This document shows, piece after piece, positions 2,743 to 20,168 of a DNA stretch of 24,000 bases. The DNA is from Lachnospiraceae bacterium. Lineage in GTDB: Bacteria > Bacillota > Clostridia > Lachnospirales > Lachnospiraceae. The notes below the pieces were generated by a model. That model searched no databases, was not told the DNA's origin, and saw nothing but the letters and a program-made list of their open reading frames with translations. The stretch's first letter is position 1. Each line of letters starts with the position of its first letter. The DNA lies in contig JAZRXA010000036.1 of assembly GCA_045599965.1 (NCBI GenBank), forward strand, positions 1 to 24,000. Direction: 5' to 3'. Made by a program: the position numbers and the translations under genes.

Positions 2743-2777
2743 CGCCCGGAAGAGCTTAGGCTTTCCGGGCGTATTTT
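2743..2777. terminator. Bidirectional rho-independent terminator between convergent genes
   Basis: A perfect 9-bp GC-rich stem, CGCCCGGAA (2743-2751) / TTCCGGGCG (2763-2771), with an 11-nt loop. TATTTT follows on the plus strand and an A-run (T-run on the minus strand) lies on the other side. Confidence 0.8.
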
Positions 2778-5106: not shown

Positions 5107-5160
5107 TTGCAATAGATTACGTTGGAACGTTTGTTGTAGTTTTTTACAACAGATTACGTT
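5107..5160 (-). repeat. Imperfect 17-bp direct repeat (15/17) at the junction of the two ligase-fusion paralogs
   Basis: Plus strand: TTGCAATAGATTACGTT (5107-5123) and TTACAACAGATTACGTT (5144-5160), 37 bp apart. The second copy forms the last codons and stop of the upstream paralog (..KRNLL*). The first copy is intergenic, just upstream of the paralog-1 SD. Confidence 0.6.
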
Positions 5161-7438
5161 TAATCTTACCGTTCGTTGTCTTTGGCAGATCATCCTTAAA
5201 ATCAATAATTCGAGGATATTTATAAGGAGCCGTACGACTTTTAACGTAGTTCTGAATTTCAATTTTTAATTCATCAGAAGGAACAGTTCCTTTTACAAGA
5301 ACGATGCTTGCCTTAACAACCTGTCCTCGGATTTCGTCAGGAGCAGCAGATACACCACACTCTAAGACATAAGGAAGTTCCATAAGTACGCTTTCGATTT
5401 CGAAAGGTCCAATACGGTATCCAGAAGATTTGATGACATCGTCTGCACGACCTACATACCAGAAGTATTCGTCCTCATCGCGCCATGCCAAGTCTCTAGT
5501 ATGATAATAATTATCATGCCATACATCAGCAGTAGCTTCCGGTTCTTCGAAATAGCCTTTGAACAAACCGCAAGGAATGCCATTGCCTGTGTAGATAACG
5601 ATTTCTCCTACTTCACCATCCGCACATTCTTCGCCATCTGCATTAAGAAGATGAACATCGTAGAGCGGACTTGCTTTACCCATGGAGCCAGGTTTTGTCA
5701 TCATTCCGGCAAAGGTACCGATAACCATGGTAGTTTCCGTTTGTCCAAAGCCTTCCATAATAGAAAGACCGGTAGCCTTGCGGAATTGTTCGTAAACTTC
5801 TGGATTCATGGCTTCGCCAGCGATGCTTGCATGTTTCACTGAGCTTAAGTCATATTTGCTGAGGTCCTCTTTGATGAAGAAACGGTACATCGTAGGAGGA
5901 GCACAAAAAGAAGTAATATGATATTGAGCGAACAAAGATAAAATATCGTCCGCATGGAAACGGTCAAAGTCATAAACGAAAGAAGCAGCGCCGTTCATCC
6001 ACTGGCCATAGAGTTTGCCCCAAAGAGCCTTGCCCCATCCAGTATCGGAGATGGTTAGGTGAAGGCCTTCTGGATCCACACAATGCCAGTACTTCGCAGT
6101 CAGGTAATGACCTAACGGATATTTGCAACTGTGAATAGCAGCCTTCGGATAGCCAGAGGTTCCGGAGGTGAAGAGCATGAGCATAGAATCATCACCAGAG
6201 ATAGAATCTTCAGTTCTTACAAAACGGCTAGAATACATATCGTATTCTTCGTCGAAACAATGCCAGCCTTCGCGTTTACCACCGCTGATTATTTTGAGTT
6301 TAACAGTAGGGCATTTCGCAGCAGCTTTTTCTGCCTCGTCTGCACTGGTTCCGAATGCAGCACATACAATTGCTTTTACTTTTGCTGCATTAAACCTATA
6401 TTCAAAATCTTTTTCTACTAATTGGTCAGTTGCAGGAATTGCAATAGCGCCTAATTTATGAAGGCCTATGATTACTGGCCAAAATTCCCAGTTTCTGCGC
6501 ATAACCAGCATTACGCGGTCACCTTTTTCCACACCCAAAGCACGGAAATAGTTCGCAGCTCTTGCAGACATTTTTTTCATGTCAAAGAAAGTGAAGCGTC
6601 TTTCTTTGCGGTTACGGTCTAAATGAACCATAGCAAGACGGTCTGGGTCTTTATCAGCAATTGCATCCACAACATCGAATGCAAAATTGAATTTATCTGG
6701 ATTAGTGAATTTGATGGAAACTGGAGCACCAGTTTCGCTGGTTGCAGTTTCAATGAAATCATTCAGGTAATCGCCGACAGAAACAATAGCAGGAACACTG
6801 TTAAGGTGTTTTTGTACTTCTTCTGCATTCATCATGCGACCATGGTTCCAAATCAGTTCTTCTTCGCCACTTAAAATAACGGCGCAAAAAACAACATCTT
6901 TTCCGCCAATAGCAATCATACCGTGAGGAGTGGAAGAGTTATAGAAGATGCTGTCGCCAGGTCCTAATTCTTCTTCATGATCACCAATCTTAATTCTCAT
7001 GCTACCTTCTAGAACAAGGTCAAACTCTTGACCACCATGTGTTACTTGATGAATCGGCTCATTTTGTTCTGCTTCTGAGTATTCATAACGAACCCAATAA
7101 GGGTCTGCTTTTTTATTTTTAAACAGAGGAGCGATAGACTTAATTTCGATGCCAGGCTCTTTTGCCGTAAGCTGGCCATTGCCGTTACGGGTAATTGCAT
7201 AGCTAGTAAGTCGGGAATTACTTCCTTCTAAAAGTTCGGTAATTTCAATACCAAAACATTGCGCACATTTATGAATAAATGTGAAAGGAAGGTCTGCAGC
7301 TCCCGTTTCATATTGGATGTATTCTTCAGTGCTGATGCCGGTAAGTTCCGCCATATTGGCTTCTGTGTAGTTATAGTCAATTCGAAGCTCACGAATACGT
7401 TGCGCAACTTCCATCAACATATTACTGTTGTCTGCCAT
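5144..7438 (-). CDS. Triple fusion: XRE-family HTH + cupin + AMP-forming medium-chain (MACS/ACSM-like) acyl-CoA synthetase, 764 aa (paralog 2)
   Basis: Same architecture as 2822-5089. HTH: AELTGISTEEYIQYETGAADLPFTFIHKCAQCFGIEITELLEG. Cupin: THGGQEFDLVLEG, GPGDSIFYNSSTPHGM. Ligase: FNFAFDVVD, TSGTSGYPK, GFGQTE, YHTRDLA, GRADDVIKSSGYRIGPFEIESV, PKTTNGKIKR. I placed the start at the ATG (complement of 7436-7438) preceded by GGAGGAG, rather than the tracked TTG at 7459. Confidence 0.85.
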   Translation of the reverse strand: MADNSNMLMEVAQRIRELRIDYNYTEANMAELTGISTEEYIQYETGAADLPFTFIHKCAQCFGIEITELLEGSNSRLTSYAITRNGNGQLTAKEPGIEIKSIAPLFKNKKADPYWVRYEYSEAEQNEPIHQVTHGGQEFDLVLEGSMRIKIGDHEEELGPGDSIFYNSSTPHGMIAIGGKDVVFCAVILSGEEELIWNHGRMMNAEEVQKHLNSVPAIVSVGDYLNDFIETATSETGAPVSIKFTNPDKFNFAFDVVDAIADKDPDRLAMVHLDRNRKERRFTFFDMKKMSARAANYFRALGVEKGDRVMLVMRRNWEFWPVIIGLHKLGAIAIPATDQLVEKDFEYRFNAAKVKAIVCAAFGTSADEAEKAAAKCPTVKLKIISGGKREGWHCFDEEYDMYSSRFVRTEDSISGDDSMLMLFTSGTSGYPKAAIHSCKYPLGHYLTAKYWHCVDPEGLHLTISDTGWGKALWGKLYGQWMNGAASFVYDFDRFHADDILSLFAQYHITSFCAPPTMYRFFIKEDLSKYDLSSVKHASIAGEAMNPEVYEQFRKATGLSIMEGFGQTETTMVIGTFAGMMTKPGSMGKASPLYDVHLLNADGEECADGEVGEIVIYTGNGIPCGLFKGYFEEPEATADVWHDNYYHTRDLAWRDEDEYFWYVGRADDVIKSSGYRIGPFEIESVLMELPYVLECGVSAAPDEIRGQVVKASIVLVKGTVPSDELKIEIQNYVKSRTAPYKYPRIIDFKDDLPKTTNGKIKRNLL

Positions 7439-7467
7439 TTTTTCTCCTCCGAGGGGCAAATTTCTTC

Positions 7468-7478
7468 ATTACTGTAAT
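7468..7478. promoter_or_regulatory. Perfect palindrome ATTAC-T-GTAAT in the predicted 5' leader of the ligase-fusion operon (candidate operator)
   Basis: ATTACTGTAAT reads identically on both strands. It lies between the predicted minus-strand -10 box (7510-7515) and the paralog-2 SD (about 7445-7451). Confidence 0.3.
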
Positions 7479-7509
7479 TTAATTCTATTTCGCCATCCTA
7501 AACTATTAA

Positions 7510-7538
7510 ATAATAATGAAAATTTTATTTGCAGTCAA
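7510..7538 (-). promoter_or_regulatory. Sigma-A type promoter for the two HTH-cupin-ligase genes
   Basis: Minus strand reads TTGACT (complement of 7533-7538), 17-nt spacer, TATTAT (complement of 7510-7515). This gives a leader of about 65 nt to the ATG at 7438. Confidence 0.45.
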
Positions 7539-7622
7539 TAGAAAAATTGCACAAAGTAAACGACGAAAACCTATTTTTAGCAAGGCATTTCGCTTATTTT
7601 TACCAAAGAAAAAAGTAATTCG

Positions 7623-7651
7623 TTGACTGTAAGAAAAAGTGGGTTTATAAT
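7623..7651 (+). promoter_or_regulatory. Sigma-A type promoter for the 10-gene OFOR/ligase/ilvE/PFOR operon
   Basis: TTGACT (7623-7628), 17-nt spacer, consensus TATAAT (7646-7651). This gives a leader of about 100 nt to the ATG at 7757. It is divergent from the minus-strand promoter, with the two -35 boxes about 85 bp apart. Confidence 0.6.
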
Positions 7652-7756
7652 CTCCAAAAGCAAAGGATTCTGCCTTGCAGAGACTTTGTTTCTATTTTGT
7701 ATCCTCTTATAGGTTTTGAGGGTTTCTTTTCGTGTATTTGAGGGAAGAAAAATAAG

Positions 7757-8461
7757 ATGAATGCTTTTTTAAAAGCCATGGCCGAGGGCCCAAGAAAAAT
7801 TGCAATTACGGGTCATTTTGGAAGTGGCAAAACAGAGGTCAGCGTATCTCTTGCCACGGCCTTAGCAAAAGAAAATATTCCAAACTTGGCGTTATGCGAT
7901 CTGGATCTTGAAAATCCCTATTTTCGTTCCAGAGAACGACAAAGCCTGATGGAGGCTTCGAAAATCAAAGTTTATTCCGATCCTTTCAAAGGAAAGAATG
8001 GAAGCGAACTTCAGACCATCGATGCAGCTATTAGGGCGCCTTTGGAAGATGAAACTTGCAGAGTCATCTTAGATTGCGGAGGAGATGCTACGGGAGCCAT
8101 GATTTTAAATCAATTCAGCCCGTATATGAAAGAGGATGCTCAGCTAATCAGCGTTGTAAATTGTAACCGTCCGGGAACTAATACACCGCAAAAAGCTGCT
8201 GATCAGATAAACAATACGATGGAAACTACCGGAATAAAAGTTACGGGTATCATATCCAATGCGCATCTGATTCGCTACACAACAGCCCAAACCGTAATGG
8301 ATGGCATGGAATTTACTAAAGAGGTTTCGCGCCTTACGGGCATCCCGGTACTTTGTGCATGTTGTATGGAAAGCCTAGTAGAAGAACTTTCCGGTTGTGA
8401 TTTTGATATTTTCCCGATTGGAATGTACATGAGGGATAGTTATTTAGATAAAAAGGTTTAA
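7757..8461 (+). CDS. Uncharacterised P-loop NTPase (SIMIBI-like), first gene of the OFOR operon
   Basis: Canonical Walker A ITGHFGSGKTE near the N-terminus. A candidate Walker B/switch is RVILDCGGDATG. The layout loosely recalls G3E/MinD-type maturation NTPases (compare UreG liESGGDNL), but the NKxD position reads SNAH. No confident family assignment is possible by eye. Confidence 0.6.
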   Translation: MNAFLKAMAEGPRKIAITGHFGSGKTEVSVSLATALAKENIPNLALCDLDLENPYFRSRERQSLMEASKIKVYSDPFKGKNGSELQTIDAAIRAPLEDETCRVILDCGGDATGAMILNQFSPYMKEDAQLISVVNCNRPGTNTPQKAADQINNTMETTGIKVTGIISNAHLIRYTTAQTVMDGMEFTKEVSRLTGIPVLCACCMESLVEELSGCDFDIFPIGMYMRDSYLDKKV

Positions 8462-8490
8462 AAACCATAAAAATATTCAGGAGGCTTGCA

Positions 8491-8721
8491 ATGAAGAGAC
8501 GTTTTAAAGTCGTTTTCGATGGAGACAAATGCAAAGGCTGTGGCTTATGCATTTCCTTCTGCCCAAAAAAAATCCTTGCCTTTGACCCGGAGGTTAATTC
8601 CAAAGGATATCATCCGGCAGGAATCACAGATGTAACAGAGTGCATCGGCTGCACAAGTTGTGCGACCATGTGCCCAGATTGCTGCATCAGTATTTATGAA
8701 TTAGAGGAGAAAGAAGAATGA
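8491..8721 (+). CDS. 2-oxoacid:ferredoxin oxidoreductase delta subunit (2x[4Fe-4S] ferredoxin)
   Basis: Two CxxCxxCxxxCP-type motifs: CKGCGLCISFCP and CIGCTSCATMCP. 76 aa, AGGAGG SD. Its stop overlaps the next start (ATGA at 8718-8721). Confidence 0.85.
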   Translation: MKRRFKVVFDGDKCKGCGLCISFCPKKILAFDPEVNSKGYHPAGITDVTECIGCTSCATMCPDCCISIYELEEKEE

Positions 8722-9794
8722 GTAAAGTACTTATGAAGGGCAATGAAGCCTTTGGAGAAGCTGCAATACGTGCCGGCTGTAAGTGCTATTTCGGCTATCC
8801 TATTACACCACAGAACGAAGTTCCTGAGTATATGAGCCATGAACTGCCAAAGGCAGGTGGCGCATTTGTACAGGCAGAAAGCGAACTGGCTGCTGTTAAC
8901 ATGGCCTATGGTGCTGCAGCTGCAGGCGGTCGTGTATTTATTTCCACGAGTTCTCCAGGTCTTGCTTTAATGCAGGAAGGACTTGGATTTATATGCAGTA
9001 CGGAAGTTCCAATCGTTGCTCTAAATGTATCCAGAGGCGGCCCTGGTGTAGGTGGTATCCAGCCAGGTCAAGCAGACTATTTCCAGGCAACTAGAGGTGG
9101 CTACAATGGTGACGCTAAAATTCCGGTTTTCGCACCTTCAGGAATTCAAGAATGCGTTGACATGATTTATGAAAGTTTCGATATTGCTGAGAAATACCGT
9201 AACCCGGTACTCATTCTTGCAGACGGCATGATTGGACAGATGATGGAACCGGTAGAACTTCCACCACAAAAGGAAATTACCCCAGTTAACCAAATCAGCG
9301 AAAAGAAACCATGGGCAATCACCGGAACTGATAATCATGACGGAAGAAACGTTATTTTCTCGCTACGTTTGGTACCGGATGTATTAGAGTCTCATGTCGA
9401 GCATATGTTTGAGAAATACGAAGAAGCAGAAAAGGAACTGGTTCGTTACAGTTCTATGAATTTGGAAGATGCAGAAATCGTATTTGTTGCTTTCGGAACC
9501 ATGTCCCGCTTATGCGCAGAAGCCATTGAGATTCTAGAGGAACGCGGTATTAAAGCTGGATTGATTCGTCCAATCAGCTTATGGCCATTTCCAGATAAAG
9601 CCTTTGAAGAAATCGGTCCAAAGACAAAAGTTGTTATTTCAACCGAGCTTAGCATGGGCCAGATGATTCAGGACGTTAAGGCAGCAATAAGCGGTCGTTT
9701 ACCTGTAAGACTGATTAACCGTACAGGCGGAATTGTTCCGTCCTCTCTTGAAATTGCTGACAGAGCAATCAAACATTTGGAGGAGCTGAAATGA
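8718..9794 (+). CDS. 2-oxoacid:ferredoxin oxidoreductase alpha subunit (VorB/KorA/OorA type)
   Basis: LMKGNEAFGEAAIRAGCKCYFGYPITPQNE, QAESELAAVNMAYGAAAAGGR and TSSPGLALMQE are typical for OFOR alpha. 358 aa. Translationally coupled on both sides. Confidence 0.85.
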   Translation: MSKVLMKGNEAFGEAAIRAGCKCYFGYPITPQNEVPEYMSHELPKAGGAFVQAESELAAVNMAYGAAAAGGRVFISTSSPGLALMQEGLGFICSTEVPIVALNVSRGGPGVGGIQPGQADYFQATRGGYNGDAKIPVFAPSGIQECVDMIYESFDIAEKYRNPVLILADGMIGQMMEPVELPPQKEITPVNQISEKKPWAITGTDNHDGRNVIFSLRLVPDVLESHVEHMFEKYEEAEKELVRYSSMNLEDAEIVFVAFGTMSRLCAEAIEILEERGIKAGLIRPISLWPFPDKAFEEIGPKTKVVISTELSMGQMIQDVKAAISGRLPVRLINRTGGIVPSSLEIADRAIKHLEELK

Positions 9795-10534
9795 AAACTA
9801 TATTTGAACCAACAAAGGGAATGCTCCCTGTAGATACAAGCTATTGTCCAGGATGTTCTCATGGTATTGCACATCGTCTTATCATGGAAGTTTTGGAAGA
9901 AAGAGGAGATTTAGGACGCACCATCGGTGTTGTTCCAATCGGATGCTCTATTAATGCTCATAACTTCATGAACATTGATATGTGCGAGTCCACTCACGGA
10001 AGAGCTCCTGCTATTGCAACAGGCATACGTCGCGTTCACCCAGATAAAGTTGTTTTTACTTATCAGGGCGATGGAGACTTAGCTTCCATTGGTGCTGGTG
10101 AAATTGTTCATGCAGCTCATAGAGGCGAGAAGTTTACTACATTCTTTATTAACAATGCGATTTACGGTATGACAGGTGGACAGATGGCTCCTACTACTTT
10201 GATTGGTCAGAGAGCTACTACTGCTGTTAATGGACGTACCATTGAGCAGGCCGGCCTTCCTTTAAAAGTCTGCGAAATGCTATCAACCATTCCTGGCGCA
10301 GTATTTGTAGAAAGAGTAATTTTGAACACTCCTGCAAATGTAAGAAAAGCAAAGAAAGTTATTGAGAAAGCATTTGATATTCAAGAAGCAAAACTAGGTT
10401 TCACCTTTATTGAATTCCTTTCTGCATGTCCTACGAACTGGGGAATGTCACCAGAAGACGCATTAAAATGGGTTGCTTCAGATATGGCAGAATATTATCC
10501 AGTCCAAAATTTTAGAACTCCGGAGGGCTTTTGA
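9791..10534 (+). CDS. 2-oxoacid:ferredoxin oxidoreductase beta subunit (TPP and Fe-S binding)
   Basis: N-terminal CPGCSHG motif. The TPP-binding segment is YQGDGDLASIGAGE...NNAIYGMTGGQ. 247 aa. Confidence 0.85.
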   Translation: MKTIFEPTKGMLPVDTSYCPGCSHGIAHRLIMEVLEERGDLGRTIGVVPIGCSINAHNFMNIDMCESTHGRAPAIATGIRRVHPDKVVFTYQGDGDLASIGAGEIVHAAHRGEKFTTFFINNAIYGMTGGQMAPTTLIGQRATTAVNGRTIEQAGLPLKVCEMLSTIPGAVFVERVILNTPANVRKAKKVIEKAFDIQEAKLGFTFIEFLSACPTNWGMSPEDALKWVASDMAEYYPVQNFRTPEGF

Positions 10535-10536
10535 TT

Positions 10537-11067
10537 ATGAAGATGAAAATGTTTTTTGCCGGTAGTGGTGGCCAGGGAACCTTAGCAATCGGCCAAATGA
10601 TTGCAAAAGCAGCAATGGAAGAAGGAAAAGAAGTAACTTGGCTTCCTTCATATGGACCGGAAATGCGTGGTGGTACGGCAAACTGTACAGTTGTTGTTTC
10701 GGACAAGCCAATTAGTTGTCCGTTAATCAACACCGCAGATATGTTAGTAACGATGAACTTGCCATCTCTTGTTAAATTTGAGCCAATCGTTGTTCCAAAC
10801 GGACTGATTATGATTAATAGCTCTTTAGTTAGCATTGATACATCTAGAAGTGATGTAAAATCTGTAAAAGTTGCAGCAAACGATATTGCTGCAGAGCTGG
10901 GAAACGAAAAAGCAGCCAATATGATTATGTTGGGTGCCATTTTGAATGAGACTCATGTTGTAGAACCGGATACTATCCGCAAAGAAATCGAGCATATGTT
11001 CTCAGGCCCTAAGGAAAAATTCCTTGCCATGAACATGGAAGCTTTTGAACATTACCTTACAAAATAG
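10537..11067 (+). CDS. 2-oxoacid:ferredoxin oxidoreductase gamma subunit
   Basis: FAGSGGQGTLAIGQMIAKAA and SYGPEMRGGTANCTVV are typical for OFOR gamma. I placed the start at the in-frame ATG at 10537, 9 nt after GGAGGG (10522-10527), rather than the tracked TTG at 10531. Confidence 0.8.
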   Translation: MKMKMFFAGSGGQGTLAIGQMIAKAAMEEGKEVTWLPSYGPEMRGGTANCTVVVSDKPISCPLINTADMLVTMNLPSLVKFEPIVVPNGLIMINSSLVSIDTSRSDVKSVKVAANDIAAELGNEKAANMIMLGAILNETHVVEPDTIRKEIEHMFSGPKEKFLAMNMEAFEHYLTK

Positions 11068-11085
11068 TTTAAGGAGAAAAATTCA

Positions 11086-12498
11086 ATGAAAAACATCCAT
11101 ATCAGTGACGTTACATTAAATACAGCACTTGATTCTGGGCGCAATGCCCTGAATTTTCGCGAGAAAATTGAGATCGCGAAGTTGTTAGATCGACTAGATG
11201 TGGATGTTATCGAAGCTGGGGCAATTGTAAATGAAAAGACCGATAGCCTATTAATAAAGGCAATCTCTACCGCGGTAAAAACTTCTTGTATTGCGGTACT
11301 TGTTGACCCAGAAGATAAAGAAAGTGTAGCAAAGGTACATGCTGCGCTGAAGGATGCTCCTTCTTATAGAATGCAGGTGGTAATACCTGTAAGTACGGTA
11401 CAGATGGAATACATTTGTCATAGAAAACCGGCAGCTGTATTAGAATTGATAAAAGAGTCTGTAAGCGAGTGCAAACAGTATGCAGAAAATGTAGAGTTTA
11501 TCGCAGAAGATGCAGTACGCAGCGATCAAGATTTTCTATTCACAGCTATAGATGTGGCTTTAGAAGCAGGGGCAAATGTAATTACAGTCTGTGACGCAGA
11601 AGGAAGCTTGCTTCCAAGTGAAGTATTTGAAAAAATTTCGGACATACGTAAAAAAGTACCGGAGAATGTAACTTTGGGAGTTCGTTGCGCAAATGATCTT
11701 TATATGGCTACCGCTAGTTGTGCAGCTGCTATCCGTGCAGGCGCAGATGAAATCAAGACATGTGCCGGCGGTATAAAGACAACCGAATTAGATAAAATCG
11801 TAGCAGTACTTTCTTCTAGAGGAGACAGCTTAAATGCATTCACCAACGTTAAGACTACAGAAATGCAACGAGTAATTTCTAAAATTCATGAAATCTGCGA
11901 AACTACTCGTTCAGACCATTCACCATTTGATTTTGGCGTTCGTGAAGAAGAAGGCATATTCCTAACTGCGAAGGATGATATGGCAGCAGTTACTCAGGCT
12001 GCAAAACAGCTAGGCTACGAGTTAAGTGATGAAGACGCAGTAAGTGTTTATAATGCGTTTGTTCATATCGCAGAAAAAAAAGAGCAAGTTGGCCAAAGAG
12101 AATTAGATGCCATCATTGCATCTGCAGCAATGCAGGTTCCTGCAACATATTCTATTGAAAATTATATTATTAACTCGGGAAACAAAATTACTGCAAGTGC
12201 CCATATGAAATTAGTCAAAGATGGTAAAGTTTTAGAAAGCGTTTGCCTTGGTGATGGTCCAATCGATGCTGCGTTCCTAGCAATCGAGCAAATTTTGGGA
12301 AGACATTTTGAACTGGATGATTTCCAAATTAAATCTGTAACCGAAGGACATGAGGCGATGGGTGAAACTGTCGTACGTCTTCGTTCTGGCGGAAAGCTTT
12401 ATTCCGGACGAGGCATCTCTACCGACATTATTGGTAGCGGCATTCGCGCTTACATTAATGCAGTTAATAAAATTGTCTTCGAGGAGGAAGAAAAATGA
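11086..12498 (+). CDS. 2-isopropylmalate synthase-like protein (HMGL-like TIM barrel + LeuA regulatory domain) with degenerate active site; predicted non-catalytic
   Basis: The N-terminus aligns to the LeuA IFDTTLRDGEQSPG...VDIIEAG motif but reads ISDVTLNTALDSGR...VDVIEAG. The HxH metal motif (VHCHNDLG) reads VRCANDLY (R200/C201/A202, nt 11683-11691). The C-terminal domain keeps LeuA_dimer hallmarks: GDGPIDAAFLAIEQI, HEAMGETVVRL, GRGISTDIIGSGIRAYINAVNK. Confidence 0.75.
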   Translation: MKNIHISDVTLNTALDSGRNALNFREKIEIAKLLDRLDVDVIEAGAIVNEKTDSLLIKAISTAVKTSCIAVLVDPEDKESVAKVHAALKDAPSYRMQVVIPVSTVQMEYICHRKPAAVLELIKESVSECKQYAENVEFIAEDAVRSDQDFLFTAIDVALEAGANVITVCDAEGSLLPSEVFEKISDIRKKVPENVTLGVRCANDLYMATASCAAAIRAGADEIKTCAGGIKTTELDKIVAVLSSRGDSLNAFTNVKTTEMQRVISKIHEICETTRSDHSPFDFGVREEEGIFLTAKDDMAAVTQAAKQLGYELSDEDAVSVYNAFVHIAEKKEQVGQRELDAIIASAAMQVPATYSIENYIINSGNKITASAHMKLVKDGKVLESVCLGDGPIDAAFLAIEQILGRHFELDDFQIKSVTEGHEAMGETVVRLRSGGKLYSGRGISTDIIGSGIRAYINAVNKIVFEEEEK

Positions 12499-14972
12499 GA
12501 CTTACCTTCTCAGCAAGAGGGTGGCACAGTCTTTCCTGGCAGGAACTGATTGATACTACCTTAGAAAATAAATATGAAGGGCTGGAGCTTTACAACGTGC
12601 ATAAATATGATGCACTAGTTGGAAAGGGCGGTCCTTTAAATGAATATAATATTCAGGCAACGTCTCGGTTTTTAAGAAACAATAAACTGACCGTTCCATG
12701 TATTGATACCTCTTTGGATATCAGCTCTGACAGTAAAGAGGTTATGAGCTGCATTCTTGAAACTATTAAAATTGCAGCTGCGCTGAAAAGTCCTTATGTT
12801 GCTGTGAAAGCGAAGGCCGATGCAGAAGAGCAAGTTTATGCTAACGTTGAAAAGATTTTGCCGGAAGCAGAACGTTTAGGAATTACACTTTTGATTTCTA
12901 CGAAAGGAATCTATGCGGATTCTGCAAAACTACGTAGTCTGATGAACTTTTTTGCAAATGATAATCTTGCAGTTTTATGGGATTCTTTGCATACCTACCG
13001 AGATAAAAAGGAAACTCCGGCAAATACCATTACCAATCTCGGAGCTTATGTGAAACATGTTCATTTAAGAGACTTAAACGATGATGGAACCTATAACCTT
13101 CCAGGCGAAGGAGCTTTCCCAATTGATGATTTAATGAGAGCCTTAGGCTCAGTAGACTATAATGGATTTATTTCTCTGGTTTGGAAACCGGAATATATCA
13201 GCGAGATTACGAATCCGGGAATTGTATTGCCATTCTTTAGCAACTACATGAACCGTTTTGGTGATACCCGTGGCAAGAAGCCAACACTGTATCTAAATCA
13301 TGACGGAAGCGGTCAGTATGTTTGGAAAAAAGATGAATTAATTTCTCTTACTTTTTCTCAGATTCTTGACCGTATGGCTTATGAATTTCCAGATCAGTAT
13401 GCCTTCCGTTATACGACCTTGGACTATACTCGCACCTATCGCGAGTTTAAAGAAGATGTTGACCGCTTCGCCCGTGCTCTAATGAGTTTGGGTGTGAAGC
13501 ATGGATATAAAGTTGCCGTATGGGCAACAAACATTCCTGCCTGGTATATTGCATTCTGGGCAGCAGCAAAAATCGGTGCCGTTTTGGTAACCGTAAATAC
13601 AGCCTATAAAATTCATGAGGCAGAGTATTTATTAAGACAGTCAGATACTCATACTCTGATTATGATTGATGAATGCAAAGACTCAAATTACAAAGAAATT
13701 ATTAACGAACTTTGTCCGGAAATTAAAAAGTCGAAGCCTGAAAAACCGTTACATTGTAAGGCTCTTCCGTTCTTAAGAAATGTAATTACGGTAGGCTTTT
13801 CTATGCCGGGCTGCTTAACCTTTGAGCAGGCTATGGACTGCTGTGAAAATGTTTCTCCTCATGAACTGGCAAAAATGGCAGCAGAGGTTGAGGTAAATGA
13901 TGTAGTAAATATGCAGTATACCTCTGGCACCACGGGTTTTCCGAAGGGAGTTATGCTGACTCACTATAACGTAGTAAATAACGGAAAATGTATTGGAGAC
14001 CGACTGGGACTTTCTACAGCGGACCGTATGATGATTCAGGTACCGATGTTCCATTGCTTTGGGATGGTACTTTCTATGACCGCCTCCATGACTCATGGGA
14101 CCACACTTTGTCCACTTCCATATTTTTCTGCAAAGAGTTCTTTGGCTTGCATAAATCAGGAAAAGATTACTTGCTTTAATGGCGTTCCGACCATGTTTAT
14201 TGCAATGTTTAATCATCCAGATTACAAAAAGACCGATTTTTCCCATATGAGAACAGGCATTATGGCGGGTGCTGGATGTCCTCCGGAACTGATGCGACGT
14301 GCGGCAAGAGACGACGAAATGCATATGAGCGGTATTGTTTCGGTTTATGGCCAAACCGAGTCCGCTCCGGGAAATACAATGTCTTCATGGACAGACCCAT
14401 TGGATAAGAGATGCGATACCGTTGGTAATGCGTTCCCACATATTCAGTGTAAGATTATCGATCCGGAGACCGGAGAAATTCTCCCACCAGGACAAAATGG
14501 TGAATTTTGTTCCAGAGGCTATAACACTATGAAGGGATATTATAAAATGCCAGATGCGACGGCAGCTGCAATAGATGCCGATGGATGGCTTCATTCAGGT
14601 GACTTAGCTTGCTGTGACGAAAATGGCTATTATAAGATTACCGGTCGTCTAAAAGACATGATTATTCGTGGCGGTGAAAACATCTATCCGAAGGAAATCG
14701 AGGAATTCATTTATACCCATGAAGATGTTCAAGATGTTCAGGTAATAGGTGTTCCGGATAAGACTTATGGCGAAGAAGTTATGGCTTGCGTCATCGCAAA
14801 AGAAGGAAGCGACTTAACTAAGGAGAAGCTTCGTGAATATATTACTAAGCGGCTGGCTCGCCATAAAGTTCCGAAATACATTGAATTAATGGACGAGTTT
14901 CCAATGAATGCGGCGGGAAAAGTTTTGAAATATAAGATGAGAGAAGATGCAGCAAAAAGGCTAGGTCTTTAA
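12495..14972 (+). CDS. Fusion: xylose-isomerase-like (AP_endonuc_2) TIM barrel + AMP-forming acyl-CoA ligase (ACSF2/YngI/FadD-like), 825 aa
   Basis: N-terminal ~260 aa show the pattern YEGLELY, IAAALKSPYVAV, LGITLLIST, LAVLWDSLHTY, VKHVHLRD, YNGFISLVW. C-terminal ~560 aa carry YTSGTTGFPKGVMLTH, VYGQTES, LHSGDLA, GRLKDMIIRGGENIYPKEIEE and the catalytic-Lys motif AAGKVLKYK. ATGA overlap with the upstream gene. Confidence 0.8.
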   Translation: MRLTFSARGWHSLSWQELIDTTLENKYEGLELYNVHKYDALVGKGGPLNEYNIQATSRFLRNNKLTVPCIDTSLDISSDSKEVMSCILETIKIAAALKSPYVAVKAKADAEEQVYANVEKILPEAERLGITLLISTKGIYADSAKLRSLMNFFANDNLAVLWDSLHTYRDKKETPANTITNLGAYVKHVHLRDLNDDGTYNLPGEGAFPIDDLMRALGSVDYNGFISLVWKPEYISEITNPGIVLPFFSNYMNRFGDTRGKKPTLYLNHDGSGQYVWKKDELISLTFSQILDRMAYEFPDQYAFRYTTLDYTRTYREFKEDVDRFARALMSLGVKHGYKVAVWATNIPAWYIAFWAAAKIGAVLVTVNTAYKIHEAEYLLRQSDTHTLIMIDECKDSNYKEIINELCPEIKKSKPEKPLHCKALPFLRNVITVGFSMPGCLTFEQAMDCCENVSPHELAKMAAEVEVNDVVNMQYTSGTTGFPKGVMLTHYNVVNNGKCIGDRLGLSTADRMMIQVPMFHCFGMVLSMTASMTHGTTLCPLPYFSAKSSLACINQEKITCFNGVPTMFIAMFNHPDYKKTDFSHMRTGIMAGAGCPPELMRRAARDDEMHMSGIVSVYGQTESAPGNTMSSWTDPLDKRCDTVGNAFPHIQCKIIDPETGEILPPGQNGEFCSRGYNTMKGYYKMPDATAAAIDADGWLHSGDLACCDENGYYKITGRLKDMIIRGGENIYPKEIEEFIYTHEDVQDVQVIGVPDKTYGEEVMACVIAKEGSDLTKEKLREYITKRLARHKVPKYIELMDEFPMNAAGKVLKYKMREDAAKRLGL

Positions 14973-15023
14973 AAATAAATAATCACGCGGGAAAAAATCC
15001 CAAAAATAAGCGGAGGAAATAGT

Positions 15024-16097
15024 ATGGAAATTAGAATTGAAAAGAACCCTAATCCGGCTCAAAAACCTACAGATGAAAGCAAACTTGGTTTTGGCAAAAT
15101 ATTTACAGACCACATGTTTGTTATGGATTGGTACAAAGGAAAAGGTTGGGAAGATGCTAGAATCATTCCTTTTGGAAACCTTAGCGTGCATCCAGCATCA
15201 ACAGTTTTTCATTATGCCGTTGAAATTTTTGAAGGCCTAAAGGCTTATCGTGCAGCAAATGGAAGTATCCGTTTGTTCCGTCCAATTGAAAATGCAAGAC
15301 GTATGAACAACTCTGCAATCCGTATGGCAATGCCTACGATTCCAGAAGAAGATATTGTTCAGGCAATCGAAACCTTAGTAACCATCGACAAAGACTGGGT
15401 TCCTCATGAAGATGGAACAAGCCTTTACATTCGTCCATTTATGATTGGTGATGATGAGCACCTTGGCGTACATGGTATTTCTCACGCTCGTTTCATGATT
15501 ATTCTTAGCCCATCTGGAGCTTACTACCCAGAAGGAATGGCTCCTGTAAAGATTATGATTGAAGACGAAGACGTTCGTGCCGTACGTGGTGGTACAGGCT
15601 TCACAAAATGCGGTGGAAACTATGCAGCATCTCTTCGTGCCGGAGACCGTGCAGAAGAAAAAGGCTTCACACAGGTTCTGTGGCTGGATGGCGTAGAAAG
15701 AAAATATATCGAAGAAGTTGGAGCTATGAACATCATGTTCAAGATTAACGGAAAAGTAGTTACTCCGGAACTGAATGGTTCTATACTTCCTGGAATTACC
15801 CGTAAGAGTATCTTAGAACTTCTTCGTAATAATGGCGCAGACGTAGAGGAAAGAAAAATCAGTATTGATGAAGTTATTGAAGCTGCAGAAAACGGAGGCT
15901 TGGAAGAAGTTTGGGGCTGTGGAACCGCAGCAGTTGTTTCTCCAGTAGGCTGGCTTGCTTTTGAAGATAAGATGTTCTGCATCAACAACGGAGAAATCGG
16001 CGAATTAACACAAAAACTTTATGACGAACTCACAGCAATTCAATGGGGCAAAAAAGAAGATCCATTCGGATGGACCTATACACTAGTTGAGGAATAA
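15024..16097 (+). CDS. ilvE: Branched-chain amino acid aminotransferase (fold type IV, long form)
   Basis: FGKIFTDHMF, YAVEIFEGLKAYR, LYIRPFMIG, the PLP-lysine context GGTGFTKCGGNYAASL and GITRKSILEL. GGAGGA SD (15012-15017). Confidence 0.9.
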   Translation: MEIRIEKNPNPAQKPTDESKLGFGKIFTDHMFVMDWYKGKGWEDARIIPFGNLSVHPASTVFHYAVEIFEGLKAYRAANGSIRLFRPIENARRMNNSAIRMAMPTIPEEDIVQAIETLVTIDKDWVPHEDGTSLYIRPFMIGDDEHLGVHGISHARFMIILSPSGAYYPEGMAPVKIMIEDEDVRAVRGGTGFTKCGGNYAASLRAGDRAEEKGFTQVLWLDGVERKYIEEVGAMNIMFKINGKVVTPELNGSILPGITRKSILELLRNNGADVEERKISIDEVIEAAENGGLEEVWGCGTAAVVSPVGWLAFEDKMFCINNGEIGELTQKLYDELTAIQWGKKEDPFGWTYTLVEE

Positions 16098-16100
16098 TTA

Positions 16101-19100
16101 ATGGCAAAAGAAATGATTACTGTTGATGGCAATACAGCCACAGCGGATATAGCATATGAATTTTCAGAAGTAGCGGCAATCTATCCAATTACGCCGTCTT
16201 CACCAATGGCTGGGTCCACAGACGCATGGAGCGCAAATGGCAGAAAGAATATGTTCGGCCAGCAGGTAAAATTGGTGGAAATGCAGTCAGAAGCTGGCGC
16301 AATCGGCGCAGTACATGGTGCCCTTCAGACCGGTGCTCTTGCAGTTACCTATACGTCTAGCCAGGGCCTTATGTTGATGATTCCTACTCTTTACCGTATC
16401 GTAGGGGAGAGGCTTCCTGCAGTTCTTCATGTAGCGGCAAGAACCGTAGGTACTCATGGTATGAGTATTTTTGGAGATCATAGTGATGTTATGGCATGCA
16501 GACAAACAGGAGCAGCTCTTCTTAGTTCCGGCAGCGTTCAGGAAGCAGCAGAAATTGCAGCCGTTGCCCATCTTTCTGCTCTTAAAGGAAGTACTCCGTT
16601 TATTCATTTCTTTGATGGATTCCGTACTTCTCATGAGCTTTGTAGAATCGAGGCTCCGGATAAAAAAGCTTTAGCAGCACTAATGGATAAAGAAGCTCTG
16701 AAACGTTTTCGTAGATATGCCCTGAACCCAGAGCATCCAATGCTTAGAAACACCGTTCAAAATGACGACGTATTCTTCCAAACCCGTGAAGCAGCAAACC
16801 ATTTCTATAATGACCTTCCTGGTATTGTTGAAAAATATCTTCATGAAGTAAATAAAATTTGCGGACGCAATTATGAACTGTTTAACTATTACGGAGACCC
16901 AGAAGCTACCGATGTAATCGTAGCAATGGGCAGCGTAAGTGGAACGGTATGCGAAGTAGTTGACTGGCTTCGCAGTCAGGGCCGTAAAGTTGGCTATGTT
17001 CAGGTTCATTTATATCGTCCGTTCTCTATAAAACATTTTCTTAAAGCTCTTCCTGAAACAGTACAGCGTATCGCGGTATTGGACCGTACAAAAGAGCCGG
17101 GAGCATCAGGAGAGCCTTTGTATCAGGACATTTGCACCTCCCTTATGGGAAGCGAACGAAAAATTTCTGTAATCGGAGGAAGATACGGACTTAGCTCAAA
17201 AGATACGGATCCTTCCCAGATTGCAGCTGTATTTAATAACCTTGCTAAGGAGAATCCAATTAAGGGATTCACCATCGGCATTAATGATGATGTAACCCAC
17301 TTAAGTTTAGAAAATGCAAAAATGGATGGCTTCAACCCAGGCAACATTAGGTTGGCTAAGTTCTGGGGACTTGGCGGCGATGGAACTGTTGGAGCAAACC
17401 ATAATACGGTTCAAATTCTTGGCGACTGCGCAAATATGTATTCACAGGCATATTTCCAGTATGATGCGAAGAAATCCTTCGGTGTTACCAAATCTCATTT
17501 GAAGTTTTCACCGGAGCCAATCCGCGGCTCTTACTATGTAAAATCTGCAGACTTTGTGGCATGCCACAATCAAAGTTTTATAAGCCAGTTTGATATCGTA
17601 GATGAAATTAAGCCAGGCGGAATTTTCTTGTTGAACTGTGATTTAAAAGATGAAGAACTCGAATCCATCATTCCTGGAAAAGCAAGAAGACTTCTTGCCC
17701 AGAATGATATCCATTTCTATACAATTAACGCTACCAAGATTGCAGATGAATTAGGTCTTGGAAGCCATACCAACACTGTACTTCAGGCAGCTTTCTTCGC
17801 CTTGACCAATCTGATTCCATTAGATGAAGCTTTAGGAGAAATGAAAAAAGCAGCCCAAACTACTTATGCAGCAAAAGGTGAAGAAGTAATTCAGAAAAAT
17901 ATTGACGCCATTGATGCAGGCGCCAACGCTCTTCATAAAGTAGAGATTCCAAAGTCCTGGTTCCAGGCAGAAGATGATCCTGCTCCAGATGAGTCCGCAC
18001 TTCCAGAAGTAGTAAGAAAAATTCTCTTTCCGGTTAACCGCCAAAAAGGTGATGACATTCCGGTAAGCACGTTTATTGGCCGCGAGGATGGTGTAATTGA
18101 ATTCGGTCTTACCGCGTTTGAAAAGAGAGGAATCGCAGTACATATTCCAAACTGGGATGCAGAAAAATGCCTTCAGTGCAACCTTTGCTCCTTTGTTTGT
18201 CCACATGCAGCGATTCGTCCATACCTCTTAAACGAAGAGGAAGTTCAAAATGCTCCAGAAGGATATTCGACAGTTCCTGCCAAAGGCGCAGACGGACTGC
18301 ACTTTACAGTTAAAATTTCCACCTATGACTGCACCGGTTGCGGAAGCTGTGTCAGCGTATGTCCAAAAGAGGGCGCTCTAAAAATGGAGCCGGCAAATCT
18401 TAAGGAGGAAGACAAAGTGGCTTGGGAATACGGCCTGAATCTTTCCGATAAAGGCGATGTATTCAATCTGTATTCTGTTAAGGGCAGCCAGTTTAAACAG
18501 CCTTTAGTAGAATTCTCAGCAGCATGTGCAGGCTGCGGCGAAACTCCATATGCAAAGCTATTAACTCAGCTGTTTGGCGATAGAATCTATTGGGCAAACG
18601 GTACCGGATGCTCCCAAGCATGGGGCGCACCAATGCCACAGATTCCTTACACCGTAAATAAAGATGGCAGAGGGCCTGCTTGGACCAACAGTTTATTTGA
18701 AAACAACGCAGAGCTGACTTTAGGTATGTACCTATCTGTATCTCAACAAAGAGATGCGCAAAAAGCTAGAATTAATCAGCTGATTGAAATGGCTCAAGGC
18801 GAACTTAAAGAAGCATGCATCAAGTTCATCGATGCTTTTGATAACTTTGAAGAATCTAGAAAAACTGCAGACGCAGTCATCAAACTTTTGGAAAACGAAG
18901 TCGACAAAGGAAATACGCTTATCGATGAAATCTATGATAATAAAGACTACATGTCAAAGAAGACTTTCTGGATGTATGGCGGCGATGGTTGGGCATACGA
19001 TATCGGATTTGGTGGCTTAGACCATGTAATTGCAACGGGACTGAATATTAACTGTTTCGTAATTGATACGGAAGTATATTCCAATACCGGCGGACAGAGT

Positions 19101-19595
19101 TCGAAAGCTACTCCTCTTGGCGCAGTTGCACAGTTTGCATCTGCAGGCAAGGGCACCGGCAAGAAAGACTTAGGCGCAATTATGATGAGTTATGGAAATG
19201 TGTATGTAGCTCAGGTAGCCATGGGTGCAAATCCAAACCAGTTGATTAAAGTCTTAAAAGAAGCTGAAGAATTTGATGGACCTTCTGTAATCGTTGCTTA
19301 CACTCCATGTACGGCTCATGGAATTAAATCTGGAATGTGCTCAGCACAGCAAGAGATGAAGAAAGCGGTTCAAAGTGGATATTTCAATCTATATCATTAT
19401 GATCCAAGATTAGAGCATCCAATGAAAGTGGATAGTGCACAGCCAACCCTTTCCTATCAGGACTTCTTAAGCGGAGAAGTTCGTTATGAGTCCTTGAAGA
19501 CAACCTTCCCAGAGAGAGCTAAAGAACTGTTTGGCGAAGCAGAAGAAGCAGCGAAACAAAAATATGAGAAATATAAGCAATTAGAATTGCAGTAA
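16101..19595 (+). CDS. nifJ: Pyruvate:ferredoxin (flavodoxin) oxidoreductase, single-polypeptide PFOR
   Basis: 1164 aa. AAIYPITPSSPMA, GLGGDGTVGANHN, ferredoxin domain CLQCNLCSFVCPHAAIRP / CTGCGSCVSVCP, and TPP domain GGDGWAYDIGFGGLDH...DTEVYSNTGGQ. The start is 3 nt after the ilvE stop, with the SD inside ilvE. Confidence 0.92.
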   Translation: MAKEMITVDGNTATADIAYEFSEVAAIYPITPSSPMAGSTDAWSANGRKNMFGQQVKLVEMQSEAGAIGAVHGALQTGALAVTYTSSQGLMLMIPTLYRIVGERLPAVLHVAARTVGTHGMSIFGDHSDVMACRQTGAALLSSGSVQEAAEIAAVAHLSALKGSTPFIHFFDGFRTSHELCRIEAPDKKALAALMDKEALKRFRRYALNPEHPMLRNTVQNDDVFFQTREAANHFYNDLPGIVEKYLHEVNKICGRNYELFNYYGDPEATDVIVAMGSVSGTVCEVVDWLRSQGRKVGYVQVHLYRPFSIKHFLKALPETVQRIAVLDRTKEPGASGEPLYQDICTSLMGSERKISVIGGRYGLSSKDTDPSQIAAVFNNLAKENPIKGFTIGINDDVTHLSLENAKMDGFNPGNIRLAKFWGLGGDGTVGANHNTVQILGDCANMYSQAYFQYDAKKSFGVTKSHLKFSPEPIRGSYYVKSADFVACHNQSFISQFDIVDEIKPGGIFLLNCDLKDEELESIIPGKARRLLAQNDIHFYTINATKIADELGLGSHTNTVLQAAFFALTNLIPLDEALGEMKKAAQTTYAAKGEEVIQKNIDAIDAGANALHKVEIPKSWFQAEDDPAPDESALPEVVRKILFPVNRQKGDDIPVSTFIGREDGVIEFGLTAFEKRGIAVHIPNWDAEKCLQCNLCSFVCPHAAIRPYLLNEEEVQNAPEGYSTVPAKGADGLHFTVKISTYDCTGCGSCVSVCPKEGALKMEPANLKEEDKVAWEYGLNLSDKGDVFNLYSVKGSQFKQPLVEFSAACAGCGETPYAKLLTQLFGDRIYWANGTGCSQAWGAPMPQIPYTVNKDGRGPAWTNSLFENNAELTLGMYLSVSQQRDAQKARINQLIEMAQGELKEACIKFIDAFDNFEESRKTADAVIKLLENEVDKGNTLIDEIYDNKDYMSKKTFWMYGGDGWAYDIGFGGLDHVIATGLNINCFVIDTEVYSNTGGQSSKATPLGAVAQFASAGKGTGKKDLGAIMMSYGNVYVAQVAMGANPNQLIKVLKEAEEFDGPSVIVAYTPCTAHGIKSGMCSAQQEMKKAVQSGYFNLYHYDPRLEHPMKVDSAQPTLSYQDFLSGEVRYESLKTTFPERAKELFGEAEEAAKQKYEKYKQLELQ

Positions 19596-19624
19596 AGAAA
19601 ACGTAAAAAAATAAGTGATGCAAG

Positions 19625-19662
19625 AAAAAAACCCTGAAGAGAAAAATCTTTTCAGGGTTTTT
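19625..19662 (+). terminator. Rho-independent terminator ending the 10-gene operon
   Basis: Stem CCCTGAAGAG (19632-19641) / CTTTTCAGGG (19648-19657) with 9 of 10 positions paired. An A-run precedes it and TTTTT (19658-19662) follows. Confidence 0.8.
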
Positions 19663-19709
19663 GTATAAATAGTTTATGATATATGATATTTCCTTTTAAG
19701 GGGATTGTA

Positions 19710-19738
19710 TTGATAAAAATACACAAAAATGGTAAAAT
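19710..19738 (+). promoter_or_regulatory. Sigma-A type promoter of the V-type ATPase operon
   Basis: TTGATA (19710-19715), 17-nt spacer, TAAAAT (19733-19738), with an extended -10 TG at 19730-19731. Confidence 0.5.
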
Positions 19739-19824
19739 ATGATACATGATGGGGGCAATTGTACTTTTTTTAAAAAGAGCCCAAAGACAGAAAAAAATTA
19801 GCATGAAATATTATGGAGGTGCGT

Positions 19825-20133
19825 ATGGCACAAGAAGTAATTAAAAATATAAAAGAAGCAGAGCTTAAGGCGAAAGAGACACTTGCTAATGCTGAAAAAG
19901 AAAAACAAGAAATTCTAGACAAAGCAGCCGAAGATGCAAAAACTTTGAAAAAAGATATTTTAGACAAAGCTAAAAAGCAGGCTCAAAAAAAGCTCGACAA
20001 AATTGAGGCTACTAGCGAAGCGGCTATGGAAGAGGCTCAAAAGAATGCCGAAGCAGTTATCAAGCAGTTCGAGAAAAACGCTAAAGCGAAAAAAGAAAAA
20101 GCTATCAAAGCTGTAATCGAAACAATCGCTTAA
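19825..20133 (+). CDS. V-type ATPase small peripheral-stalk subunit (G-like; positional equivalent of Enterococcus hirae NtpF)
   Basis: 102-aa Lys/Glu/Ala-rich coiled-coil protein (AQEVIKNIKEAELKAKETLANAEKEKQEILDKA...) immediately upstream of subunit I. I placed the start at the ATG at 19825, 4 nt after GGAGGT (19815-19820). The tracked ATG at 19813 overlaps the SD. Confidence 0.65.
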   Translation: MAQEVIKNIKEAELKAKETLANAEKEKQEILDKAAEDAKTLKKDILDKAKKQAQKKLDKIEATSEAAMEEAQKNAEAVIKQFEKNAKAKKEKAIKAVIETIA

Positions 20134-20168
20134 CTAGAATCACTTTCGTATATTAAGGAGGCTTAAAA

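Follow-up and report, generated by a model that had tools for sequence, protein, structure and literature searches.

A nine-gene operon and two divergent ligase genes in a Lachnospiraceae bacterium as a likely salvage route from branched short-chain acids to valine, leucine and isoleucine

That rumen and gut anaerobes need or use branched short-chain acids for making valine, leucine and isoleucine was recognised some sixty years ago, and it is the basis of feeding such acids to ruminants. In labelling experiments of the 1960s to 1980s, Allison and co-workers reportedly showed that isobutyrate, 2-methylbutyrate and isovalerate are turned into valine (Val), isoleucine (Ile) and leucine (Leu) by reductive carboxylation in these organisms. 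An example of a fermentation operon of the kinase type for branched-chain keto acids is ptb-buk-bkd of Enterococcus faecalis. Among the ligases that activate acids of this kind, MacsMa, the medium-chain acyl-CoA synthetase of Methanosarcina acetivorans, prefers 2-methylbutyrate (PMC10455477), and MbcS of Staphylococcus aureus activates 2-methylbutyrate and isobutyrate and hardly isovalerate (PMC10026030). Here, we analyse a stretch of 24,000 nucleotides from a Lachnospiraceae bacterium (contig JAZRXA010000036.1; hereafter the window), in which an operon on the plus strand (7757-19595) lies back to back with two genes for acyl-CoA ligases. We think it likely, judging from sequence, that the window encodes a salvage route by which exogenous branched short-chain acids become Val, Leu and Ile.

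The chemistry that we propose (acid to acyl-CoA to 2-oxoacid to amino acid) and the habitat are those of the work of Allison and co-workers. Whereas that work is physiology without genes, here there is a gene set, with a ligase for each amino acid, T-box wiring, a P-loop nucleoside triphosphatase (NTPase), a degenerate ("dead") isopropylmalate synthase and a TIM-barrel domain. The pathway physiology and all the enzyme superfamilies are old. New, as far as the literature shows, are the widespread gene module, the design with one ligase per amino acid, the fusions of a helix-turn-helix (HTH) domain, a cupin and a ligase (HCL), the NTPase linked to a 2-oxoacid:ferredoxin oxidoreductase (OFOR), and the pair formed by the dead isopropylmalate synthase (dIPMS) and a fusion of TIM barrel and ligase (TIM::LIG). 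An earlier note on this DNA had not recognised the assembly as a characterised system, and we likewise found no published description of the gene set, which is weak evidence of novelty given a thin coverage of subscription journals. The genes are the following.

7757..8461, plus strand: NTPase of the SIMIBI class, with Walker A motif GHFGSGKT
8491..8721, plus strand: OFOR delta subunit, ferredoxin-like with two [4Fe-4S] clusters (Pfam Fer4_7 and related)
8718..9794, plus strand: OFOR alpha subunit, VorB type (NCBIfam NF005507)
9791..10534, plus strand: OFOR beta subunit, binding thiamine pyrophosphate (Pfam TPP_enzyme_C)
10531..11067, plus strand: OFOR gamma subunit (Pfam POR)
11086..12498, plus strand: dIPMS, HMGL-like barrel plus LeuA regulatory domain; its stop overlaps the next start (ATGA)
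12495..14972, plus strand: TIM::LIG, xylose-isomerase-like TIM barrel (amino acids 1 to about 275) fused to an AMP-forming ligase of the FACL type (AP_endonuc_2, AMP-binding)
15024..16097, plus strand: IlvE, branched-chain amino acid aminotransferase, class IV type II (NCBIfam)
16101..19595, plus strand: single-polypeptide pyruvate:ferredoxin oxidoreductase (PFOR) of the NifJ type (TIGR02176)
5144..7459, minus strand: HCL1, XRE-type HTH, cupin and AMP-forming acyl-CoA ligase of the MACS type (Pfam)
2822..5089, minus strand: HCL2, of the same composition (HTH_3, Cupin_2, AMP-binding, AMP-binding_C)

The gene content of the operon is as the earlier note gave it, with Pfam and NCBIfam in agreement. 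Its count of ten genes gives way to nine open reading frames (NTPase, delta, alpha, beta, gamma, dIPMS, TIM::LIG, IlvE and PFOR), ten being reached only by counting the fused gene once per domain. The two divergent ligases lie where it placed them, at 5144-7459 and 2822-5089 on the minus strand; that each has an N-terminal XRE-type HTH and a cupin, according to Pfam, had gone unmentioned. The listed TTG start of HCL1 gives the N-terminus MPLGGEKMADNS, and an ATG a few codons downstream is the likelier start.

In the route that we infer from sequence, as regards the substrates, the direction of the OFOR and the parts played by the NTPase, the dIPMS and a DNA-binding HTH-cupin head, three AMP-forming ligases would carry out the ATP-dependent activation, each for a single amino acid: HCL1 that of 2-methylbutyrate (Ile), HCL2 that of isobutyrate (Val) and TIM::LIG, together with dIPMS, that of isovalerate (Leu). 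A common four-subunit OFOR of the VorB type, with its NTPase, would then convert acyl-CoA, CO2 and reduced ferredoxin into the 2-oxoacid, and IlvE would transaminate the 2-oxoacids. The co-transcribed PFOR could serve as the source of reduced ferredoxin and CO2, so that the net reaction would be pyruvate plus acyl-CoA to acetyl-CoA plus 2-oxoacid, with transamination pulling it forward. This sequence of activation, reductive carboxylation and transamination with three ligases had been put forward in the earlier note, and gene linkage, T-boxes, likeness to MacsMa, the VorB score and the contrast with a kinase-type locus of another lineage (L089, below) all support it.

A scan of one genome per species yielded at least 564 confirmed stretches encoding dIPMS relatives, and such relatives occur in several hundred or more species of gut and rumen. 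The neighbourhood was surveyed in the best 80 of these at least 564 stretches (51-93% identity), open reading frames being labelled by BLAST against the window proteins. These loci come from metagenome-assembled rumen, gut and faecal genomes, mostly of gut and rumen Clostridia (labelled Oscillospiraceae, Faecousia, Lawsonibacter, Acutalibacter and others), with nine labelled Bacteroidota; the nearest named locus among the matches listed belongs to a horse-faeces genome labelled Lachnospiraceae. TIM::LIG comes after dIPMS in every locus with downstream sequence. A block of one or two HCL genes, NTPase, delta, alpha, beta, gamma and usually ilvE adjoins this pair in three arrangements, upstream, downstream or divergent. 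Locus L084 has the exact gene order of the window, with an NTPase of 64% identity, and L085 has an HCL and the NTPase-OFOR genes only. Where at least 8 kb of both flanks was available (32 loci), HCL genes were present in 16, the OFOR in 13, IlvE in 11 and PFOR, within 10 kb, in 10.

Because the pair and the block occur in different arrangements or alone among the relatives, the window operon is a fusion specific to its lineage, made up of separable sub-modules that stay persistently linked. The idea of one operon as one module thus stands in so far as the genes remain together across rearrangements in dozens of species, as the comparison of neighbourhoods suggested in the earlier note has borne out, and gives way where it implies an indivisible unit. 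Likewise, PFOR is indeed present (1646 bits against TIGR02176, equivalog cut-off 911) but is an optional neighbour rather than a fixed part. Could the nine genes be chance neighbours, housekeeping in nature and without a common function? PFOR and IlvE are central enzymes, and PFOR is linked in only about one third of the loci; but the overlapping stops and starts, the linkage through three arrangements, many species and two phyla, and the coordinated T-box control make this explanation scarcely credible.

On the nine Bacteroidota-labelled contigs (L020, L023, L048, L059, L060, L062, L063, L065 and L081), the dIPMS-TIM::LIG pair shares 51-53% identity with that of the window, lacks a T-box and has neither an HCL nor an OFOR block close by. 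In L059 the context is genuinely that of Bacteroidota (gldM, gldN), the pair standing alone among gliding-motility and BspA genes. This distribution suggests that the two-gene unit has been transferred between phyla.

Which acid does each ligase take, and in which direction does the route run? T-boxes are read through, switching the gene on, when the cognate tRNA is uncharged. Eleven T-box leaders attain the Rfam gathering score, and in six related loci such leaders stand directly 5′ of dIPMS and HCL genes, the specifier codon being read at Rfam model positions 92-94 from the cmscan alignments. A covariance model of T-box stem I that we built ourselves, searched against 84 sources (1.27 Mb), recovered 112 leaders, every one of them with a T-box motif within 260 nt on its 3′ side. 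The specifiers follow the gene downstream: Leu in 62 of 62 leaders 5′ of dIPMS (CTC 25, CTG 36, CTA 1), to which that of L084 (CTG) is additional; Ile in 29 of 29 leaders 5′ of HCL1-type ligases (ATC); and Val in 12 of 12 leaders 5′ of HCL2-type ligases (GTA 8, GTC 4). When the ligase domains are placed in a neighbour-joining tree, the window HCL2 groups with the L007 and L084 ligases that stand under Val (GTC) T-boxes, and HCL1 with the L084 ligase under an Ile (ATC) T-box. In operons such as L018, a Val T-box precedes HCL2, NTPase, OFOR and IlvE, and a Leu T-box then precedes dIPMS and TIM::LIG, so that the OFOR and IlvE, lying inside a T-box-headed unit, would be co-induced with the ligases. 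Since such a unit responds to scarcity of a single branched-chain amino acid, the module would supply that amino acid, which argues for an anabolic role and against degradation.

The earlier note had left room for an oxidative direction of the Stickland type. IlvE would then deaminate branched-chain amino acids, the OFOR would oxidise the 2-oxoacids to acyl-CoA and the ligases would work in reverse or in detoxification. OFORs are reversible, and one locus of our collection lends this some substance. In L089 (1-6066), genes for a PrdR-like, sigma-54-dependent regulator and a true butyrate kinase precede those for an NTPase that is a distant member of the family, delta, a VorB-type alpha (559 bits against the VorB model), beta and gamma; the locus appears from its genes to be a fermentative counterpart of the NTPase-OFOR unit, an enzyme type which probably serves fermentation too. 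Operons of the ptb-buk-bkd type end in a phosphotransacylase and/or a kinase; L089, with a gene layout that is typical of fermentation, combines a kinase-type ending with the same kind of NTPase and VorB-type OFOR unit as the window. In contrast, the AMP-forming ligases of the window and the T-boxes of its relatives point to the opposite physiological direction. The absence of a kinase-type ending had been remarked on before, and Pfam indeed finds neither phosphotransacylase nor kinase in the window. In most cells AMP-forming ligases work, in practice, in one direction only, and with an oxidative module the T-boxes of the relatives would induce breakdown of the very amino acid in shortage. We therefore consider the oxidative direction very improbable.

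The assignment of 2-methylbutyrate and isobutyrate to the two HCLs draws on the Ile and Val T-boxes of their orthologues and on the preferences of MacsMa and MbcS. MacsMa (PDB 3ETC) aligns with the whole ligase domain of HCL1 (627 bits) and of HCL2 (611 bits). HCL1 and HCL2 carry about 215-230 extra N-terminal residues that make up the HTH and cupin domains, which may have a role in DNA binding; MacsMa has no such extension, the alignment beginning at its residue 46-51. For MbcS, the likeness is one of described substrates, which fit an Ile and Val assignment. On these grounds, we propose HCL1 as the 2-methylbutyrate-CoA ligase of the Ile branch and HCL2 as the isobutyrate-CoA ligase of the Val branch. 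If the MACS-type HCLs act like MbcS, this would by analogy also explain why the Leu branch has a ligase of another type.

The same enzyme raises a different possibility, namely that the ligases mainly make acyl-CoA primers for branched membrane fatty acids and that the neighbouring OFOR and IlvE have a separate role. MbcS is a short-chain ligase with a primer role that activates 2-methylbutyrate and isobutyrate (PMC10026030), and a shortage of branched-chain amino acids is also a shortage of primers, so that induction through T-boxes would be compatible with primer supply. However, OFOR and IlvE lie within the T-box-headed units of the ligases in many species (L018, L052, L069), no fatty-acid synthesis gene is linked, and control by one amino acid per ligase is stricter than primer supply needs. 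As the main function of the ligases we regard primer supply as unlikely; it and amino-acid salvage are not mutually exclusive.

Salvage further requires that the four-subunit OFOR acts on branched 2-oxoacids and acyl-CoAs in the anabolic direction, as we infer. The alpha subunit passes the cut-off of the VorB subfamily model NF005507 (479.4 bits, cut-off 399) over model positions 2-349 of 352. We take this model to be based on the anabolic 2-oxoisovalerate:ferredoxin oxidoreductase VorABC of Methanothermobacter. Alpha thus matches the VorB subfamily end to end, and an anabolic direction is proposed for both enzymes; the window OFOR differs in being bacterial, in its separate beta and gamma subunits, neither of which attains a specific cut-off, and in having an NTPase gene directly 5′ of delta. 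In the next step, IlvE passes the equivalog cut-offs of NF009897 (485.2 bits, cut-off 307) and TIGR01123 (399.5, cut-off 250).

As a further alternative, already named in the earlier note, the OFOR might be a 2-oxoglutarate synthase (KOR/Oor) that feeds the amino-group carrier of IlvE and does not act on branched acyl-CoAs. The subunit order is identical, the best matches of delta are of the OorD type (below cut-off), and the nearest functionally named alphas of solved structure are 2-oxoglutarate enzymes. But alpha, which passes the VorB cut-off, fails both the 2-oxoglutarate synthase alpha model NF007206 (230.7 against a cut-off of 579) and the generic 2-oxoacid alpha model NF006412 (311.6 against 411). 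Beta likewise scores 107 against a 2-oxoglutarate cut-off of 364, and delta 49.9 against an OorD cut-off of 93. There is no linked succinate-activating enzyme, the linked ligases being tied to Ile, Val and Leu, and without this OFOR no enzyme of the cluster would consume the acyl-CoAs. The butyrate kinase that accompanies the OFOR in L089 also suggests monocarboxylic acyl-CoAs as substrates rather than succinyl-CoA. Altogether, a 2-oxoglutarate enzyme is very unlikely here.

Several observations weigh against the salvage route. What we say about regulation comes from orthologues, in loci of which the closest with T-boxes are 56-64% identical, and there is no T-box in the window itself, whether at the Rfam gathering score, at E≤5 within 7400-7800 or with the stem I model; other known riboswitches, sought as well, gave no match at the Rfam gathering score. 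Within the OFOR, beta (which reaches no NCBIfam cut-off) and delta attain no family cut-off, and gamma only just exceeds a generic one (TIGR02175, 82.1 against 81.1). The nearest alphas in the PDB, 1YD7, 8YS5 and 6N2N, belong to an uncharacterised enzyme of Pyrococcus and to 2-oxoglutarate enzymes, and the VorB name of NF005507 presumably goes back to a distant archaeal enzyme. The Leu T-box is the sole ground on which we propose TIM::LIG as the isovalerate-CoA ligase of the Leu branch, and the nearest solved relatives of its ligase are fatty-acyl and feruloyl-CoA synthetases (258 bits). Finally, PFOR and IlvE are housekeeping enzymes whose place in the operon could be incidental.

What might the proteins without a place in the textbook pathway contribute? 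The description of the dIPMS as a dead enzyme was well founded: aligned to solved isopropylmalate synthase structures, the window protein reads NTALD for RDGEQ and RCA for HxH. Among 82 relatives, the commonest residues at the metal-ligand positions include no Asp or His, the Asp position being mostly Q and the two His positions S/R/A/G/K and S/A. The protein stays below every LeuA cut-off (best equivalog score 315.8, cut-off 532). It shares with 2-isopropylmalate synthase LeuA the HMGL-like barrel and the LeuA_dimer domain, but its family lacks the RDGEQ and HxH motifs, and its partner gene encodes an acyl-CoA ligase where leuBCD would be expected for LeuA. The C-terminal LeuA_dimer domain (PF08502, 104 bits, cut-off 24.9, positions 2-130 of 131) is the best-conserved part, with an invariant GDGPID motif; a sequence search of the PDB with this regulatory domain alone gave no match. 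Control by a Leu-specific T-box is also found for leuA in other bacteria, e.g. Geobacter (PMC2700814). Because the genes are translationally coupled, the regulatory domain is conserved and the T-box is specific for Leu, we tentatively suggest that dIPMS may bind leucine and serve the Leu-branch ligase as a regulatory or scaffold partner, a role that we hold to be possible rather than probable.

The TIM domain of TIM::LIG clearly belongs to its fold family (66.8 bits against PF01261, cut-off 31.1). Its AlphaFold2 (AF2) model has a pLDDT of 91.6, and Foldseek aligns it at a TM-score of about 0.75 and 12-18% identity with AsbF, UlaE and ketose 3-epimerases (DPEase), Art22 also being at about 0.75. 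Across phyla, the ligase domain is 67-82% and the TIM domain 43-55% identical. The canonical E-D-H-E metal tetrad is absent, the window having S135/D163/H190/V229, where the equivalence of positions was judged from motifs and predicted strands. In 75 genome-derived relatives, the first position is K in 73 and the last E in 72, mostly as K-D-H-E. In the window lineage K135 (to S or A) and E229 (to V) have been replaced together, and this joint loss suggests that a Lys-Glu pair or salt bridge occupied the old metal site; in L039, E229 alone is replaced. We rejected the idea that the domain is simply dead, to which an earlier alignment of fragmentary proteins had pointed, since the 75 genome-derived sequences keep D163, H188, H190 and D193. 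Residues E31, R58, D156, H188, H190 and D193 are invariant among them, and the domain may bind a ligand even without a canonical metal site.

The NTPase reaches no Pfam cut-off, the score for CbiA being 21.9 against 25.4, and so falls into none of the described families. Its AF2 model (pLDDT 84.7) finds the ATPase-type HypB, SRP54/FtsY and FlhG as best Foldseek matches (TM-score 0.55-0.6, probability 1.0), and at E≤1e-10 the family comprises some 1,450 cluster representatives. The gene lies immediately 5′ of delta in 28 of the 29 loci that hold both, and likewise in L084, L085 and L089. We propose from these data that the NTPase is an accessory factor of the OFOR, acting in its assembly or maturation. 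A NifH-like role as ATP-driven electron donor was rejected, as no Cys is kept across two NTPase subfamilies and the fold is nearer to HypB/SRP/MinD. Two cluster representatives, P0405 (L088, 6001-8019) and P0481, are Mur-ligase/FolC-like proteins that carry the NTPase domain as a C-terminal fusion. The neighbours of the fusion gene in L088, which encode phosphoenolpyruvate carboxykinase, a SPOR-domain protein and a Fe-hydrogenase-like protein, are unrelated to OFORs, and on account of this fusion and its surroundings the family may have uses beyond OFORs.

These accessory parts could belong together as a single set of regulators and helpers of a new type placed on an old pathway, a joint reading of dIPMS, HCLs and NTPase that we offer as speculative and do not favour. 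As part of it, the dIPMS pseudoenzyme, having kept its leucine-sensing domain, would give end-product feedback to TIM::LIG or serve as its scaffold. HCL1 and HCL2 would be enzyme and repressor in a single chain, in analogy to BirA, coupling acid activation to transcription through the HTH and cupin domains. The NTPase would be an obligatory partner of the OFOR, for its assembly or possibly for driving the uphill carboxylation.

How the module is controlled in the window lineage is a separate matter, to which the following non-coding features are relevant.

7623..7651, plus strand: operon promoter, TTGACT-17-TATAAT, matching 11 of 12 consensus positions
7652..7756, plus strand: leader of 105 nt with a hairpin and then a U-rich run at about 7658-7700 (from folding); no T-box
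19632..19662, plus strand: intrinsic terminator of the operon, a long perfect hairpin (-21.6 kcal/mol) followed by TTTTTG
7510..7538, minus strand: promoter-like site of the divergent HCL1-HCL2 transcript, TTGACT-17-TATTAT, 10 of 12 positions, by consensus match only
2744..2772, no strand assigned: GC-rich hairpin between an A-run and a T-run in the convergent gap of the dCMP deaminase gene and HCL2, read from the sequence

The nine genes have the hallmarks of a single operon: the same strand, short or overlapping junctions, one promoter 5′, one terminator 3′ and gaps without a terminator. The junctions measure -4, -4, -4 (or +2), +3, 18, 29 and 51 nt, and all those listed in the earlier note (ATGA overlaps at 8718, 9791 and 12495, a TGA/ATG junction at 10531-10537 and a 3-nt gap at 16098-16100) can be seen in the sequence; a simple scan saw no terminator-like site in the 29-, 18- and 51-nt gaps. 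The promoter at 7623-7651, also pointed out before, is the top match in 5000-24000, is intergenic, lies 105 nt 5′ of the first ATG and is retained with the leader in L004, a 93%-identical locus. Overall, promoter-like sites are no more frequent than expected (43 against 44.3), and the consensus scan also finds them inside genes, e.g. at 9157 and 13134, so that only the rank, position and conservation of the 7623-7651 site carry weight. The terminator at 19632-19662 is likewise genuine, by its fold and its T-run; the simple scan had overlooked the hairpin.

Eighteen loci have no Leu T-box: the nine labelled Bacteroidota, two of the window's own lineage and seven others. On the evidence of sequence comparison, the window lineage has lost its T-boxes and has all nine genes behind one sigma-70-type promoter. 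The hairpin and U-run of the leader (7658-7700) are terminator-like, are kept in L004 save for one change in stem or loop, and match no Rfam family. This hairpin could act as an attenuator in place of the T-box control that was lost. An HTH operator was also sought: no inverted repeat was found in 7440-7760, and intergenic conservation showed nothing shared beyond the closest relative. Regulation in this lineage may rest on the sigma-70-type promoter, on the leader hairpin with its U-run and possibly on the HTH-cupin heads. For the divergent transcript, the hairpin at 2744-2772, not called by the simple terminator scan, is probably a bidirectional terminator that closes HCL1-HCL2.

Some leaders of the relatives fall outside the pattern described above. 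T-box-like leaders directly 5′ of the NTPase-OFOR genes in L047 (5277-5525) and L039 (5250-5505) score 73 and 69 bits against a Rfam gathering score of 93. Their specifiers in the standard register, GCA and GAA, are inconsistent, and although they share an AUCU string we left the amino acid unassigned. A further Leu (CTC) T-box on the minus strand of L025 (38-263) faces out of the locus, which also has a tetrahydrofolate riboswitch at 7597-7697; L039 has a cobalamin riboswitch at 20946-21123.

Around the module, positions 638-2714 of the window (plus strand) encode a protein of the Sua5/YciO/YrdC family, a low-molecular-weight phosphatase-like protein, RpiB and a dCMP/cytidine deaminase, which appear to be housekeeping genes unrelated to it. 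Right after the operon terminator, at 19813-24000, comes a V-type ATPase operon (a small subunit without Pfam match, subunit I, proteolipid K/c and subunit E) with a promoter-like site of its own at 19710-19738.

If the salvage route holds, the module is a testable parts list for a physiology spread over hundreds of uncultured gut and rumen species. The specifier codon of the T-box is a built-in annotation key, which names the amino acid for each ligase, and the capacity to make branched-chain amino acids from branched short-chain acids would become predictable from metagenomes. Cross-feeding between amino-acid fermenters and salvagers could thereby be explained. The module also offers three uncharacterised types of protein: a pseudoenzyme with a leucine domain, the HTH-cupin-ligase fusions and an NTPase linked to OFORs.

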